From a virus (lineage: Duplodnaviria; Heunggongvirae; Uroviricota; Caudoviricetes): 13,854 nt of DNA. The position numbers and the translations under genes are program-made. Each line of letters starts with the position of its first letter. The stretch's first letter is position 1. The notes beneath the pieces are model-generated. The model was given only the letters and a program-made list of their open reading frames with translations, searched no databases and was not told the DNA's origin. Location of the stretch: the IMG/VR virus record IMGVR_UViG_2585427748_000003; one strand, given 5' to 3'. Shown piece by piece: positions 3,129 through 9,517 of this stretch.

Positions 3129-3284
3129 TTACTCCTCAGGTTCGTAAGCTGTGAAGACAGCGACCTCCGTCTGGCCGGTTCGGATTCGTACCTCGCAGAG
3201 GTCTTTCCTCGTTACCAGTGCCGTCACAATGACGGTTAAACAGATGACGATCAGGGCGATTAGCATCGCCTTTTGCTGCTTCAT
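3129..3284 (-). CDS. hok: Hok/Gef-family type I toxin (small membrane peptide, 51 aa)
   Basis: Translation MKQQKAMLIALIVICLTVIVTALVTRKDLCEVRIRTGQTEVAVFTAYEPEE has the Hok/Gef hallmark (hydrophobic helix followed by conserved ..RKxLCEVxIRxGxxEVAxFxAYE..). AAGGAG SD 9 nt upstream. An in-frame upstream ATG at 3341 gives the track's 70-aa frame; whether that is a mok-like reading frame I cannot tell. Confidence 0.8.
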   Translation of the reverse strand: MKQQKAMLIALIVICLTVIVTALVTRKDLCEVRIRTGQTEVAVFTAYEPEE

Positions 3285-3329
3285 AGCCTGCTTCTCCTTG
3301 CCTTTCGGCACGTAAGAGGCTAACCTACG

Positions 3330-3400
3330 TGTGTAGAGCATAGATATGGCCTCAGATTAATGTTAAGCGTCTTGCCGGACGCGTAATGTTAACTGGGGCT
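3330..3400 (+). ncRNA. sok: Predicted Sok-like antisense RNA opposite the hok leader/upstream start region (approximate)
   Basis: By analogy with hok/sok loci only. Candidate plus-strand promoter TTGCCT (3298-3303), 17-bp spacer, TAACCT (3321-3326). No clear terminator found; boundaries are guesses. Confidence 0.2.
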
Positions 3401-3575
3401 TTTCTCTATCTGCCTTTTGGTGTTCATGCCTGAGACAGATAGCCTCAAGCACCCGCTGCAATTCTACTTAACTCTCCTTTTCCCGCAAACCGTTTTTATC
3501 CCCAGCGGCAAATCGAATACACCACCAGCGCCACCGCCATCGCAATTCCTACCGTTGTTAATGCTTCAGGCCAGG

Positions 3576-6376: not shown

Positions 6377-6802
6377 TTAGTGCATCACCACAGCATTCCC
6401 TGCCGGGCCGCCGCGATTCATCTGGTCATACAAAACAACCGCTGACGCAACAAAATCATCGACATCCTTCCCCAGCCGATCCCTCCGTTCGACGATCTCA
6501 CGGTAATATTCAGAACTGTGGCTGCGCATACGGGCCACCAGCAAAGGCGGCATCGCCTTTTCGATCGCCGGTAACAGAGCCTGCATTTTTTCAACAGCAT
6601 CAGGGGTGTCTTTATCCAGCCAACGGAAAATTTTCTGGGTATTACGGGCCAGGGCTTCCGGATGGCTGTCGTCGTACAGTTCAGGGAACGTCATCCCCAG
6701 TTCGAAATAAGTCCGGGCTATTTCAGCTGCAGGAACTTTCTCACCATCAGGGTATGCCCAGGCATTCATCGCCATGCGGATGTGCTCATGTTTGATTTTC
6801 AT
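6377..6802 (-). CDS. ydaT: YdaT-like protein (Rac-type prophage, toxic partner of YdaS under RacR control)
   Basis: 141-aa ORF starting MKIKHEHI..; start overlaps the 3' end of the ydaS-like gene by 17 nt; synteny with racR/ydaS. Assignment from remembered similarity to K-12 Rac, not a search. Confidence 0.65.
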   Translation of the reverse strand: MKIKHEHIRMAMNAWAYPDGEKVPAAEIARTYFELGMTFPELYDDSHPEALARNTQKIFRWLDKDTPDAVEKMQALLPAIEKAMPPLLVARMRSHSSEYYREIVERRDRLGKDVDDFVASAVVLYDQMNRGGPAGNAVVMH

Positions 6803-7109
6803 GAATCATTTGCCTCTTGATGCTTCGGGTATGATCGTTTTCGTCATTTGGTTGCTTCATCGACATATTCTGCGAATAACATGACGAGCGTCGTAAGTAT
6901 GTCCAATCAACATCAGGACGAAGTTCTTCACACAGGACACCACCTTTTGTTGCTCGTTCAATCGCAGGACATCTCTCAGCAGGTAACTGACGTACACCTT
7001 TGATCCATTGATTTACGCTTGGAGGAGATACACCTAAAAGCCTAGCCATTGCTGATTGCCCACCGACAACAGCACAAGCTCGTTTGAATGAATAGTTATC
7101 TTTTTTCAT
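6786..7109 (-). CDS. ydaS: YdaS-like Cro-type HTH protein (first gene of the pR-like operon)
   Basis: Preferred start ATG at 7109 (MKKDNYSFKRACAVVGGQSAMARLLGVSPPSVNQWIKG..) with GGAG SD; the track's longer frame begins at a GTG at 7130. Divergent from the racR-like gene. Confidence 0.7.
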   Translation of the reverse strand: MKKDNYSFKRACAVVGGQSAMARLLGVSPPSVNQWIKGVRQLPAERCPAIERATKGGVLCEELRPDVDWTYLRRSSCYSQNMSMKQPNDENDHTRSIKRQMIHENQT

Positions 7110-7136
7110 CGAATGAACTCCAAAAAACACGCAACA

Positions 7137-7166
7137 ATATTAGGCTTAGCCTAATGAAATTGTCAA
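7137..7166 (-). promoter_or_regulatory. pR-like sigma-70 promoter for the ydaS/ydaT/replication operon
   Basis: Minus strand: -35 TTGACA (plus 7161-7166), 18-bp spacer, -10 TAATAT (plus 7137-7142). Operator A overlaps the spacer/-10 and operator B abuts the -35. Confidence 0.6.
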
Positions 7167-7204
7167 TAGGCTATGCCTAATACATCGAGAGTAGGGATTG
7201 CCTA
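7141..7204. promoter_or_regulatory. OR-like operator cluster: three 13-bp palindromes TAGGC-N3-GCCTA
   Basis: Sites at 7141-7153 (TAGGCttaGCCTA), 7167-7179 (TAGGCtatGCCTA) and 7192-7204 (TAGGGattGCCTA), spaced 25-26 bp centre to centre, in the racR/ydaS divergent intergenic region. Confidence 0.65.
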
Positions 7205-7233
7205 ACGCGATGCGCATAGGAGACTATTAAGCA

Positions 7234-7710
7234 ATGCTTAGTGGTAAAGACTTAGGCCGAGCGATAGAGCAGGCCATTAACAAAAAAATTGCATCAGGAG
7301 CCGTCAAATCAAAGGCGGAAATCGCACGTCATTTCAAAGTCCAACCACCATCAATCCATGACTGGATTAAGAAAGGTTCGATAAGTAAAGACAAACTTCC
7401 AGAACTATGGCGTTTCTTTTCTGATGTGGTTGGTCCAGAGCATTGGGGGCTTAACGAATACCCCATACCAACCCCATCCACTTCAGATACAAAAAGTGAA
7501 CTTTTAGACATAAACAGCCTTTATCAAGCCGCCTCTGATGAAAAAAGAGCAATTGTGGCTTTCATCTTATCTGGAAATGCTACGGAGCCTAGTTGGGTTG
7601 ATCATGACGTTCGCGCCTACATTGCCGCAATGGAAATGAAGGTAGCTAACTATCTGAAAAATCAAGAATCAAAACGGAAAAGCCAGAACATCACCAAGAC
7701 AGGAACTTAA
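7234..7710 (+). CDS. racR: RacR-like prophage repressor (158 aa)
   Basis: ORF MLSGKDLGRAIEQAINKKIASGAVKSKAEIARHFKVQPPSIHDWIKKG.. with AGGAG SD 11 nt upstream; flanked on both sides by the same palindromic operator family; divergent from the ydaS-like gene. Assignment from remembered similarity to K-12 RacR. Confidence 0.8.
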   Translation: MLSGKDLGRAIEQAINKKIASGAVKSKAEIARHFKVQPPSIHDWIKKGSISKDKLPELWRFFSDVVGPEHWGLNEYPIPTPSTSDTKSELLDINSLYQAASDEKRAIVAFILSGNATEPSWVDHDVRAYIAAMEMKVANYLKNQESKRKSQNITKTGT

Positions 7711-7725
7711 ACTTATATGGTCCGA

Positions 7726-7745
7726 CGGGAAATTCCTAGTTCCCG
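7726..7745 (+). terminator. Weak hairpin downstream of the racR-like gene (CGGGAA-N8-TTCCCG); possible terminator
   Basis: 6-bp stem, 8-nt loop, followed by TTAGTTAACT; U-tract is poor. Confidence 0.25.
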
Positions 7746-7786
7746 TTAGTTAACTCCTACTACCTCTCCCACAAACCATCACCTAT

Positions 7787-7843
7787 TAGGTTGCGCCCAA
7801 ATTATTAGGCATAGCCTATTGACAAGTAATTAGGCATTTCCTA
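7787..7843. promoter_or_regulatory. OL-like operator cluster: three further TAGGC-N3-GCCTA-type sites
   Basis: Sites at 7806-7818 (TAGGCataGCCTA), 7831-7843 (TAGGCattTCCTA) and a degenerate one at 7787-7799 (TAGGTtgcGCCCA); they overlap the pL-like promoter. Confidence 0.6.
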
Positions 7844-7847
7844 TAGT
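7819..7847 (+). promoter_or_regulatory. pL-like sigma-70 promoter driving the operon that ends in xis-int
   Basis: -35 TTGACA (7819-7824), 17-bp spacer, -10 TATAGT (7842-7847). The 12-mer GCCTATTGACAA is shared with the pR-like promoter on the other strand. Confidence 0.7.
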
Positions 7848-8028
7848 TTTCCCATACCAACCCATCCCGTCCCACACAATACAGGGCAATACCTCGAGTT
7901 ACCAGGCAGTGGTCAGGGGTTAAGTAGCCAGCCCGAGGCGTAAGAACATGACGGCAGGGTTCAACTTTAATAACTATGCAGCAGGTTTTTGTTCCGCTAC
8001 CCCGGCGTTAAGGGGAAATGAGGTCAGC

Positions 8029-8181
8029 ATGGATACTATCGAGCTTGGCAACAACGAATCTCTGGTATGCGGCGTGTTTCCCAACCAGGACGGCACGTTT
8101 ACCGCGATGACATATACCAGAAGCAAAACGTTTAAAACTGAAGCTGGCGCACGTCGCTGGTTAACCAGAAACACTGACTGA
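8029..8181 (+). CDS. ydaF: YdaF-like small protein (50 aa)
   Basis: MDTIELGNNESLVCGVFPNQDGTFTAMTYTRSKTFKTEAGARRWLTRNTD with GAGG SD 5 nt upstream; first gene after pL. A longer in-frame start at 7948 is possible. Name from remembered similarity to K-12 Rac ydaF. Confidence 0.5.
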   Translation: MDTIELGNNESLVCGVFPNQDGTFTAMTYTRSKTFKTEAGARRWLTRNTD

Positions 8182-8513
8182 TGAGGTTGACGATGGAATT
8201 TAAAGATTTACCAGTCCCATTCCAGGAAATGGCATCGAATGTGGTTCGCTCTCAACTGGCGACTCTTGACCTGAGTACCGTAGAAAAAGAAACCATCGAC
8301 AATATATCCGGTAACGTACGCCGAGCCTTTATCGGGCTGTACGAAGAGAAGCAGCTCTCTGATAACCAGGATTTACATGAAAAATACTTCCTGGATCTAA
8401 TGGACATCATTGATAAGGGGTTTGGCTTGTTAATGAAAAAGAAAGGGATTCGAATAGAACCCCTTGAAAATTACTTTGCAACAAAAAGCATTAATTCTTT
8501 TGATTCAAAATAA
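8181..8513 (+). CDS. Hypothetical acidic protein (110 aa; 106 aa if started at ATG 8193)
   Basis: Start overlaps the ydaF-like stop (TGATG); GAGG SD before the second ATG; AT-rich codon usage unlike the flanking genes. Confidence 0.5.
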   Translation: MRLTMEFKDLPVPFQEMASNVVRSQLATLDLSTVEKETIDNISGNVRRAFIGLYEEKQLSDNQDLHEKYFLDLMDIIDKGFGLLMKKKGIRIEPLENYFATKSINSFDSK

Positions 8514-9076: not shown

Positions 9077-9328
9077 CGCTGCAACGCCCTCTGTTATCAA
9101 TTTTCTGGTGACGTTTGGCGGTATCAGTTTTACTCCGTGACTGCTCTGCCGCCCTTTTTAAAGTGAATTTTGTGATGTGGTGAATGCGGCTGAGCGCACG
9201 CGGAACAGTTAAAACCAAAAACAGTGTTATGGGTGGATTCTCTGTATCCGGCGTTAATTGTTAACTGGTTAACGTCACCTGGAGGCACCAGGCACCGCAT
9301 CACAAAATTCATTGTTGAGGACGCGATA

Positions 9329-9517
9329 ATGGAAACGTTATTACCAAACGTTAATACGTCTGAAGGTTGTTTTGAAATTGGTGTCAATATCAGTAACCCT
9401 GTATTTACTGAAGATGCCATTAACAAGAGAAAACACGAACGGGAGCTATTAAATAAAATATGCATTCTTTCAATGCTGGCCCGTTTACGTCCGATACAAA
9501 AAGGATGCTGGCAATGA
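9329..9517 (+). CDS. Hypothetical small protein (62 aa)
   Basis: METLLPNVNTSEGCFEIGVNISNPVF..; GAGGA SD 8 nt upstream; its stop overlaps the next start (ATGA). Confidence 0.5.
   Translation: METLLPNVNTSEGCFEIGVNISNPVFTEDAINKRKHERELLNKICILSMLARLRPIQKGCWQ

Follow-up and report, generated by a model that had tools for sequence, protein, structure and literature searches.

The region flanking and including the repressor gene at 7234-7710 of the stretch of DNA analyzed here (13,854 nt; hereafter, the window) is very probably the immunity switch of a Rac-type lambdoid Escherichia coli prophage next to ompW, controlled by a right and a left operator cluster analogous to OR and OL of phage lambda. 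Its architecture is ordinary and largely known, with one part, the left cluster, that appears undescribed but was to be expected. The repressor gene, racR (7234-7710, + strand), encodes a 158-aa CI analogue with an N-terminal helix-turn-helix and a C-terminal domain other than an S24 peptidase; it is annotated as RacR (PGAP) in identical E. coli chromosomes, and its product is 91% identical in amino acid sequence to RacR of E. coli K-12 over all 158 residues. No Pfam family and no C-terminal S24 peptidase domain (Ser-Lys dyad) were found on this protein, and a sequence search retrieved no RacR relative among solved structures. On sequence grounds, we assign the window to RacR (Rac-type) immunity, with a repressor orthologous to that of K-12.

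The whole window was scanned for the operator pattern TAGGCNNNGCCTA (TAGGC-N3-GCCTA), with shuffled sequences giving the chance level. At one mismatch or fewer, the pattern matched five times (starts at 7141, 7167, 7192, 7806, and 7831) against 0.22 matches expected, a count of five being reached in 0 of 200 shuffles. As a sequence-only reading of this DNA had proposed, these sites form two clusters flanking the repressor gene: all five lie within 7141-7204 (OR) and 7806-7843 (OL) and nowhere else in the window. The same reading had listed six palindromes confined to the region. Five of them stand; the sixth, at 7787, keeps only a conserved half-site, and a site across the racR start codon at 7228 had been overlooked. 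Allowing two mismatches gave 10 matches against 3.5 expected, the additional ones being 7228-7240, 7787-7799, and three scattered matches occurring at the chance rate. The clusters, previously put at about 650 bp apart, are separated center to center by 639 bp (OR2 to OL2) or 690 bp (OR1 to OL1). The 12-mer GCCTATTGACAA, noted earlier as common to both promoters with an operator half-site abutting the -35, was indeed found exactly twice, once on each strand; it proved to be part of a perfect 23-nt inverted repeat, TATTAGGCATAGCCTATTGACAA, at 7160-7182 and 7803-7825, which includes OR2 in one copy and OL2 in the other.

Each cluster lies over a promoter that the earlier reading had called strong, and these two ranked first and second among the 16 sigma-70 promoters predicted in a scan of the whole window, the remaining 14 all scoring 9/12. 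The second-ranked (10/12 consensus match) is PydaST, the PR analogue (7166-7137, - strand), with a -35 of TTGACA (7166-7161), an 18-bp spacer, and a -10 of TAATAT (7142-7137). OR1 (TAGGCTTAGCCTA, 7141-7153; 0 mismatches; ATTAGGC-TTA-GCCTAAT in its 17-bp form) covers part of the spacer and the -10 of PydaST, and OR2 (TAGGCTATGCCTA, 7167-7179; 0 mismatches) directly abuts the -35. Across 53 distinct sequences, each of these two sites varied at 1 of its 10 half-site columns and at all three spacer columns. OR3 (TAGGGATTGCCTA, 7192-7204; 1 mismatch) lies over the racR promoter region and is confined to Escherichia-type loci; the loci of Mixta, Proteus, and the S24 type lack it, with three upstream sites each. 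OR4 (TAAGCAATGCTTA, 7228-7240; 2 mismatches) spans the racR start codon, a leaderless start; it was invariant in the 53 sequences and is nearer the consensus (TAGGCAATGCTTA) in distant relatives. An identical operator, with the racR ATG as its n3 spacer, has been published for K-12 (PMC9638921), and by analogy OR4 is probably an autoregulatory site.

Orthologs of the right cluster exist in the Rac prophage of E. coli K-12, as its racR-ydaS intergenic operators. The palindromic repeats there were shown to bind RacR by EMSA and in vivo (ChIP), with repression of a ydaS reporter (PMC5700373), and a RacR DNase I footprint gave the consensus T/ATAGGC-n3-GCCTAT/A, with ATTAGGC derived as the monomer site (PMC9638921). 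Inverted repeats of this form between racR and ydaS, including the one across the ATG, are present in the window at 7141, 7167, 7192, and 7228, with OR1 orthologous to the published O1. Also present are the divergent ydaS-ydaT operon under TTGACA-18-TAATAT (Pfam YdaS_toxin and YdaT_toxin; promoter scan) and, more generally, a multi-site operator that lies between divergent repressor and cro-like genes and overlaps both promoters. The K-12 ydaS promoter (TTGACA, 18 bp, TAATAT) was defined by a primer extension start and -10 mutagenesis and was reported to be weak in vivo even without RacR (PMC9638921), so a consensus match is no guarantee of promoter output. The two prophages further share four upstream operators, identical at OR3 and OR4 and differing at OR1 and OR2 in the N3 spacer only, as well as the PydaST hexamers and 18-bp spacing, ydaS and ydaT downstream, and the OL1/OL2-promoter module. 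By analogy with the K-12 ortholog, for which binding was shown, RacR of the window would be expected to bind its right-cluster sites. The prophages differ in location, Rac sitting in ttcA whereas that of the window adjoins ompW, and in the left operon, which reads ydaG-ydaF-kilR-racC-recET in K-12 Rac versus DUF1391-DicF-DicB-exonuclease-xis-int here.

The Cro analogue is encoded by the ydaS-like gene (about 6786-7112, - strand; Pfam YdaS_toxin PF15943, 3.9e-30, and P22_Cro, 1e-08; a RefSeq CDS in an identical chromosome), the first of a rightward early operon comprising ydaS, ydaT, and replication genes. In lambda, Cro and CI share operators, which counts toward a reading in which the palindromes, the left ones at least, are mainly targets of YdaS and not of RacR. 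In line with such a reading, repression of the ydaS promoter by YdaS has been reported for K-12 (PMC9638921), and YdaS and PaaR2 footprints overlap in prophage CP-933P (PMC8630535). We nevertheless regard it as improbable: K-12 RacR footprints cover exactly the TAGGC-N3-GCCTA motif, with its ATTAGGC monomer site, and the motif tracks the RacR N-terminal domain across loci. The operators are likely used by both YdaS and RacR, which is compatible with explaining the region as a RacR switch.

The left cluster surrounds the best promoter match in the window (11/12; rank 1 of 16), the PL analogue at 7819-7847 on the + strand, which has a -35 of TTGACA (7819-7824), a 17-bp spacer, a -10 of TATAGT (7842-7847), and a predicted start near 7854. 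OL2 (TAGGCATAGCCTA, 7806-7818; 0 mismatches) directly abuts the -35, and OL1 (TAGGCATTTCCTA, 7831-7843; 1 mismatch) lies in the spacer and overlaps the -10, the pair thus bracketing the -35. At the sequence level, a second cluster of the same operators is therefore present over an outward early promoter beyond the repressor gene. Among 35 distinct Escherichia-type sequences, the OL2 half-sites were invariant and its spacer varied at 2 of 3 columns, while the sole variable half-site column of OL1 was the mismatched position, 7839 (T or A). OL2 was also kept in Mixta, Proteus, a metagenome-assembled genome (MAG), and S24-type relatives, and the OL1-OL2 spacing is 25 bp center to center here and in K-12-type, Mixta, MAG, and Proteus loci. 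The OL1/OL2-promoter module also follows racR in K-12 Rac itself (NC_000913.3, 1,419,630-642 and 1,419,655-667). A possible weak OL3 at 7783-7799 combines a CTATTAGGT half-site with a variable right half (13-bp match at 7787-7799; 2 mismatches, a chance-rate similarity): in the 35 Escherichia-type sequences, its left half (7783-7791) was invariant and its right half varied at 3 of 5 columns, and no counterpart was found in MAG L008, Proteus, or S24-type loci. The 7787 site is a half-site at best.

Conservation of the left module extends well beyond close relatives. In a survey of 85 distinct loci, with site pairs accepted at spacings of 24 to 26 bp, 78, those of Mixta, Proteus, and S24-fused relatives among them, had a two-site promoter module after the repressor gene, in which the first site is followed by TTGACN and the second shares bases with a -10-like hexamer; the viral loci had been chosen by a pattern fitting either module, so co-occurrence is somewhat inflated. 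In Mixta, the MAG, and Proteus, where RacR has 63%, 57%, and 60% amino acid identity, respectively, the module lies 90 to 150 bp after the repressor stop within intergenic DNA that is otherwise unalignable. Its half-site columns were variable at 1 of 20 positions, versus 113 of 263 other noncoding columns (Fisher p = 5.5e-4), and variation clustered in the N3 spacers and between the -35 and OL1; the right cluster showed the same pattern of conserved half-sites and variable spacers. Judged by these substitutions, the left module is under purifying selection, and the comparative evidence for the left cluster as a whole is strong.

These data bear on whether the left cluster could be a nonfunctional remnant, copied recently from the right segment by duplication or gene conversion, as might be suspected because the perfect 23-nt inverted repeat exceeds the length needed for binding and promoter function alone. 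Such an origin is highly improbable. The module is kept in lineages whose left and right copies differ from each other and whose flanks cannot be aligned, its half-sites and hexamers hardly vary, in contrast to the drifting spacers, and phages of other immunity (Tritos, Qin) have an operator-flanked promoter of their own at the same boundary. From sequence comparison, we infer instead that RacR occupies OL1 and OL2 and that the left promoter is active from the predicted start.

Several other interpretations of this interval were rejected. A restriction of the left cluster to RacR proteins lacking S24 had been suggested by the first 12 genome loci, in which apparent absences had flanks of 630 to 1,443 nt; in a DNA pattern scan, the left pair was found in 6 of 6 S24-fused relatives with enough flank, 77 to 1,467 nt past the stop. 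We likewise discarded the idea that the DNA from racR to the left cluster encodes a terminator or structured RNA, as the 8-bp hairpin at 7724-7747 (Escherichia-type folding) had z-scores of -0.7 to +0.5 and is not preserved in Mixta, Proteus, or the MAG, and the interval contained no terminator-like site and no Rfam family. A reading of the palindromes as RNA hairpins was rejected too: their variation included no compensatory changes, and the predicted start is located downstream of OL2.

Downstream of the PL analogue, the predicted leader of the leftward early transcript (7848-8028, + strand) is 92 to 95% identical to phages of other immunity types; its start is C rich and G poor (17 C and 3 G among the 38 nt of 7848-7885), and no Rfam family was found in it. 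Just past the -10, at 7853-7860, the sequence begins to match phages that have other repressors: phage matches start at 7853-7855, and phage Tritos, which has a different CI, is homologous from 7860, with its own palindrome abutting its own -35 at the equivalent place. The first gene of the operon encodes a DUF1391 (YdfA/YdaF-like) protein (8029-8181, + strand; Pfam DUF1391, 9.3e-28; RefSeq annotation) and is followed by the DicF RNA (9103-9154; Rfam DicF, 76.7 bits), dicB (9329-9517), an exonuclease gene, xis, and int.

This left operon, 92 to 96% identical to the dicBF operon of the Qin prophage, is shared with that prophage as homologous ydfA/DUF1391, DicF, dicB, and ydfD. Qin dicBp also resembles the left promoter in its position, just past the gene for a short noncleavable repressor, and in its operators, which are located upstream of the -35 and within the spacer (PMC10448788). 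The Qin repressor, however, is DicA, its operator is TGTTAGNNATNGCTAA-like, and its homology to the window starts only at 7991, within the leader; no Qin homology was found across 6808-7990, and the DicA repressor and DicA-type operators were not present there. A related design is found in CP-933P of E. coli O157:H7 (Jurenas 2021, PMC8630535), also a Rac-like prophage with YdaS, YdaT, and an octameric noncleavable repressor, PaaR2. The hexamers of its second promoter beyond the repressor operon (PL933P-OL) are the same as in its PR; that promoter carries similar operators, and its regulation was shown by reporter assay (PMC8630535). It differs in having another repressor, GTTTAGTAA operator repeats, and a toxin-antitoxin pair cotranscribed with the repressor.

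Expression data from K-12 are consistent with a left promoter under RacR control. ydaG, ydaF, kilR, ydaE, and racC rose 40- to 70-fold after RacR titration or silencing (PMC6765115, PMC11014345), and CRISPRi on racR induced ydaG, kilR, recET, xisR, and intR (2026 bioRxiv). Since silencing of racR should not raise read-out from racR, this left-arm derepression points to a separate promoter downstream of the gene, although it could be partly indirect, via YdaS, YdaT, or prophage excision. The sbcA mutations, which activate recET, were considered as operator-constitutive alleles of the left cluster and dropped, because the toxic kilR lies between the promoter and recE; the listing of sbcA as a synonym of racC and recE also disfavors them.

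The lambda-like layout that the sequence-only reading had drawn from symmetry is thus borne out for the right cluster by the K-12 literature and for the left by comparative data. As in lambda, an operator cluster over an outward early promoter stands on either side of the repressor gene, the operators are 17 bp long and 24 to 26 bp apart, the repressor mRNA is leaderless and the repressor octameric, Cro and CII analogues are encoded on the right, and the left side carries recombination, xis, and int genes. Genes inserted between the repressor gene and OL (morons) are tolerated in some RacR relatives, like rexAB of lambda. Unlike lambda, which has three left sites and 2.4 kb between OR and OL, the window has two strong left sites and a distance of about 0.64 kb, and while lambda Cro represses cI, YdaS reportedly does not repress racR in K-12 (PMC9638921). 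RacR also differs from CI in having no S24 autocleavage domain, so RecA-mediated cleavage cannot be its route of induction. Peptidase_S24 was detected in relatives L011, L013, and L014 (E about 1e-14), which have the same N-terminal domain and operators; one DNA-binding domain and OR/OL layout is thus paired with two unrelated C-terminal domains, S24 autocleaving and RacR-type. These would constitute a natural domain-swap series bearing on what looping and induction need from the oligomerization domain.

In the switch that we propose, RacR dimers would recognize 17-bp operators of the form ATTAGGC-N3-GCCTAAT. Bound at OR1 and OR2, which bracket the PydaST -35, they would exclude RNA polymerase and so silence ydaS, ydaT (the CII analogue), and the replication genes, and occupancy of OR3 and OR4, over the racR promoters and leaderless start, would provide autoregulation. 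The mirror-image module 96 to 137 bp past the racR stop, with OL2 against the -35 and OL1 over the -10, would act on a promoter transcribing DUF1391, DicF, DicB, the exonuclease, xis, and int, and its repression would keep division inhibitors and excision genes off in the lysogen.

Whether the two clusters also act together is a question of what the repressor octamer does. Left and right modules are mirror images with the same 25- to 26-bp pair spacing, and bridging of lambda CI tetramer to tetramer uses that mirror-image paired-operator geometry. RacR, too, has been reported to be octameric by size exclusion (PMC11014345), so a loop of about 640 bp could bring together two dimers on OR1/OR2 and two on OL1/OL2. 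Looping by RacR is plausible by analogy with lambda, and the related PaaR2 is likewise an octamer with OL and OR analogues (PMC8630535). The discoverers of the RacR octamer, by contrast, explained it by one dimer sitting on each of the four intergenic inverted repeats (PMC11014345); the left sites would then repress the left promoter locally, with no bridging, and the octamer would serve only the four right-cluster sites. Distant relatives have only three upstream sites, which we count in favor of this local reading, as we do the OR2-OL2 distances of 614, 623, 629, 639, and 641 bp, and up to 2,603 bp, among the loci compared, in which no helical phasing or distance constraint was found. A conserved OR-OL distance or phasing was accordingly rejected as evidence of looping. 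We give purely local repression nearly an even chance. That a single octamer on OR1/OR2 and OL1/OL2, looping OR to OL, is the native complex of RacR-type prophages we advance tentatively, as having somewhat less than an even chance. If it is, the published octamer would be reinterpreted, and repression of ydaST and of the left operon (with DicB/DicF here and KilR/RecET in K-12) would form one cooperative unit together with racR autoregulation.

The novelty implied by the sequence-only reading does not hold for the right cluster, already published for K-12 Rac; for a RacR left operator or promoter, we found no description in the full-text literature, a search that does not exclude older print literature. 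Recent studies of the RacR switch used only the racR-ydaS intergenic region (Krishnamurthi 2017, PMC5700373; NAR 2022, PMC9638921; NAR 2023, PMC11014345). The gain is the completeness of a model system and not a new principle, a left cluster being expected in the textbook architecture. Its silencing of toxic prophage genes makes RacR essential in E. coli K-12. If RacR acts through the left operator pair as proposed, plasmid constructs without the left cluster may misreport the strength of repression, and the reported octamer would have an alternative reading. The pair would also explain the induction of kilR, recET, xis, and int upon RacR depletion in K-12 and would account for the switching on of DicB and DicF in the prophage of the window.

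Five matches to TAGGCNNNGCCTA with at most one mismatch were found in the 13,854-base window, at 7141, 7167, 7192, 7806, and 7831, a number reached by 0 of 200 dinucleotide-preserving shuffles (mean, 0.22). Allowing two mismatches added two further sites in the same region and three scattered ones, the latter being at chance level (3.5 expected). The two were TAAGCAATGCTTA (7228-7240), with the racR start codon at its centre, and TAGGTTGCGCCCA (7787-7799). The sequence-only reading had proposed six palindromes of one family confined to this region; five stand, while its sixth, at 7787, proved only half conserved, and the site on the racR ATG had been overlooked. Extension by two bases per side gives a 17-bp operator of the form ATTAGGC-N3-GCCTAAT. 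At the 7787 site, CTATTAGGT (7783-7791) was invariant across 35 distinct Escherichia-type sequences and the right half drifted; a half-site occurs at equal offset in Mixta, and no counterpart was present in the downstream regions compared from a Pseudomonadota MAG (L008), Proteus, and the loci whose repressor bears a C-terminal Peptidase_S24 domain. This site is possibly a weak OL3 or a lone half-site. Upstream of racR, Escherichia-type loci have four sites (three whose centres lie at -87, -61, and -36 relative to its start, and the degenerate one at the ATG), versus three, at -60, -35, and 0, in all more distant relatives (loci L007 to L014 compared), in which the ATG site is nearer consensus; OR3 (7192-7204) thus looks like an addition specific to one lineage.

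A whole-window scan returned 16 sigma-70-like sites, overall no excess, and the top two were the promoters that the clusters had been said to overlap: the PL analogue (TTGACA 7819-7824, 17 bp, TATAGT 7842-7847, + strand; 11/12) and the ydaS-ydaT promoter PydaST (TTGACA 7166-7161, 18 bp, TAATAT 7142-7137, - strand; 10/12), the remainder scoring 9/12 each. At both promoters, as had been noted, an operator abuts the -35, on its upstream side; the second operator lies in the spacer, overlapping the -10, at 25 to 26 bp from the first (centre to centre). The 12-mer common to both promoters indeed occurs exactly twice, as part of a larger 23-nt perfect inverted repeat, TATTAGGCATAGCCTATTGACAA, at 7160-7182 and 7803-7825.

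The right cluster is already known: it is the ortholog of the K-12 Rac racR-ydaS intergenic region, which the sequence-only reading rediscovered. Three palindromic repeats were described in that region, RacR binds it in vitro and in vivo, and a ydaS reporter is repressed in a RacR-dependent manner (Krishnamurthi et al. 2017, PMC5700373). DNase I footprints gave a monomer site of ATTAGGC and the consensus T/ATAGGC-n3-GCCTAT/A, with O1 located at the ydaS promoter and O3 at the racR ATG; the transcript from the strongest racR promoter is leaderless, and a single ydaS start maps behind TTGACA, 18 bp, and TAATAT (NAR 2022, PMC9638921). Four inverted repeats were later named, with RacR an octamer by size exclusion (NAR 2023, PMC11014345), and our sequence comparison found the same four upstream sites in K-12. 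Among 53 distinct sequences of the right cluster, 3 of 40 half-site columns were variable, as were 32 of 72 other columns and all six spacer columns of OR1 and OR2. RacR residue 42 (window 7357-7359), in the reported recognition helix (residues 38-47; PMC11014345), is Tyr in K-12 and Proteus, where this prophage and most relatives have His; the operator half-sites are equal in the two groups.

For the left cluster, OL2 (7806) and OL1 (7831), the evidence is comparative. In a protein-based set of 12 loci (one genome per species), a pair of sites lies past the repressor gene in E. coli, E. ruysiae, Mixta (63% identity), a Pseudomonadota MAG (57%), and Proteus (60%), spaced by 25 bp in every one, although the remaining intergenic DNA is unalignable save for a short motif right past the racR stop. 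Across 35 distinct Escherichia-type downstream sequences, a single one of the 20 half-site columns of OL1 and OL2 was variable (7839, already mismatched), against 113/263 other non-coding columns (Fisher p = 5.5e-4); variability was 3/6 in the N3 spacers, 4/6 in the gap between the -35 and OL1, and 1/6 in the -35 itself, a signature matched by that of the right cluster. Scanning viral contigs with TAGGCNNNGCCTATTGAC added 120 loci. A pair, defined by TTGAC(A/T/C/G) directly after the first site and a -10-like hexamer overlapped by the second, was present in 78 of the 85 distinct loci with a recognisable RacR-type N-terminus (all loci pooled), a proportion to be read with the fact that the scan detects either module and so somewhat favours loci carrying both. 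Seven lacked it: four with 630 to 1443 nt of flank, one with 74 nt, one that has 8.5 kb of flank but only one site, and an Aeromonas locus (L014; 1059 nt of flank) in which clear upstream sites are missing too.

In phages with other repressors, homology to the window starts at 7853-7860, a few bases past the -10; in phage Tritos, the DNA before that point holds a palindrome particular to this phage, GTACTAAAAGTAC, directly next to the phage's -35, and Qin has DicA-type operators arranged as in the left promoter here. These alignments make the left position a promoter slot that is conserved while its operators vary with the repressor. Analogous left promoters are PL933P of CP-933P, which carries OL1-3 and was tested by reporter (PMC8630535), and dicBp of Qin, repressed by DicA (PMC10448788); in lambda terms, the left cluster and promoter are the expected counterpart of OL/PL. 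K-12 itself carries the pair TAGGCATAGCCTA-TTGACA-...-TAGGCATTACCTA-TAGT about 100 bp past the racR stop (NC_000913.3 1,419,655-667 and 1,419,630-642, respectively). In the RacR literature available to us, older print possibly differing, there was no mention of these sites or of a promoter at this position, of a left operator, or of RacR looping, and a full-text search gave no match to the shared 12-mer; as far as we found, neither the left cluster nor its promoter has been described for RacR. Published derepression calls for such a promoter: titrating or silencing RacR raises ydaG, ydaF, kilR, ydaE, and racC 40- to 70-fold (PMC6765115, PMC11014345), and CRISPRi on racR induces ydaG, kilR, recE, recT, xisR, and intR (2026 bioRxiv). 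Because silencing racR should not raise read-through out of racR, yet left-arm genes rise, we infer a RacR-sensitive promoter downstream of it.

The lambda-like OR/OL reading is supported, on the right by K-12 orthology and on the left by comparison, with two corrections to the set of sites. Ordinary promoter occlusion is the best-supported mechanism: CI-like RacR would occlude the two promoters and regulate itself at the racR start. A loop joining the clusters is plausible: RacR is reported to be an octamer, the two-dimer modules at the two promoters mirror each other, and lambda and PaaR2 offer precedents. Among relatives, OR2 and OL2 lie 614 to 2603 bp apart and show no phasing, which long loops tolerate and which gives looping no positive support. 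Induction by RecA-stimulated self-cleavage cannot apply, since RacR has no S24 domain (Pfam); the profile search placed the protein of the window in no Pfam family at all. In Achromobacter, Aeromonas, and several viral contigs, the RacR N-terminal domain is fused to a LexA/CI-type Peptidase_S24 domain (225 to 366 aa). Three of these fusions (L011:1501-2598, L013:1501-2586, and L014:1501-2175) are 65 to 78% identical at the N terminus to the first 77 to 79 residues here, and six are in viral contigs (L137, L143, L172, L175, L177, and L197; 350 to 366 aa). Such loci retain TAGGC-N3-GCCTA sites, except the more diverged L014, and the six viral contigs also retain the downstream pair. As the same N-terminal domain and sites occur with S24 in relatives, E. 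coli RacR seems to have exchanged an autocleaving domain for its present C-terminal one, with DNA binding and operators conserved.

Klebsiella-type relatives have a 384-aa ORF between the repressor gene and the left pair (L103:7515-8666, + strand; in L009 the same gene begins after 1977), so that about 1.9 kb separates OR from OL. Pfam assigns its product an HSDR_N nuclease-like domain of type I restriction (2.2e-14), and PADLOC gave no match; since rexAB occupies this position in lambda, the ORF may represent a moron or a gene for defence that the lysogen expresses. The motif CTTA(A/G)(A/G)CTnnTnTGGTC(C/T), across and past the racR stop (7708-7731, + strand; also in L007, L008, L009, and L010), is kept from E. 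coli to Mixta, Klebsiella, and Proteus, where protein C termini and the DNA beyond have diverged; it is non-coding and gave no significant RNA structure on folding. Proteus-type loci have an additional operator-like site after it, TAGGCCTTTCCTA, at +38. The predicted leftward transcript opens with ~40 nt (7848-7885, + strand) that are rich in C and poor in G (17 C and 3 G of 38); only two other stretches of this kind occur on the + strand of the window. The stretch resembles a Rho utilisation site, which would fit with Rac kilR in K-12 reportedly being silenced by Rho. A 13-nt exact direct repeat, CCCATACCAACCC, is shared by the racR linker-coding region (7462-7474) and the start of this leader (7851-7863, + strand); C-rich sequence could give such a match by chance, or recombination at the module boundary could have left it.

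Gene identities, gene order, and Rfam matches identify the window as a lambdoid prophage with Rac-type immunity. The YdaS/Cro-like (6786-7112) and YdaT-like (6377-6802) ORFs, both on the - strand, were assigned by Pfam, and racR (7234-7710, + strand) carries that annotation in several E. coli chromosomes with 100% identity to the window over 6700-8200. In one identical chromosome the annotated order is lysis genes, IS1, hokD/sok, replication genes, ydaT, ydaS, and racR, followed by DUF1391, dicB, DUF1482, exonuclease, xis, int, and ompW. An IS1A element (1695-2392, - strand) adjoins a truncated DUF6645 gene (910-1677, - strand; annotated pseudogene), which makes the prophage defective at least in part. 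The late region holds a hokD/sok type I toxin-antitoxin locus (3129-3454, - strand), with sok (3279-3454, - strand) matched by Rfam at 117 bits and hokD by annotation. The leftward early operon is 92 to 96% identical to the Qin dicBF operon from 7991 onward and encodes the DicF sRNA (9103-9154, + strand; Rfam, 76.7 bits) and dicB (9329-9517, + strand; by annotation). Since the left promoter precedes the operon that holds both, these cell-division inhibitors would here answer to RacR, not DicA.
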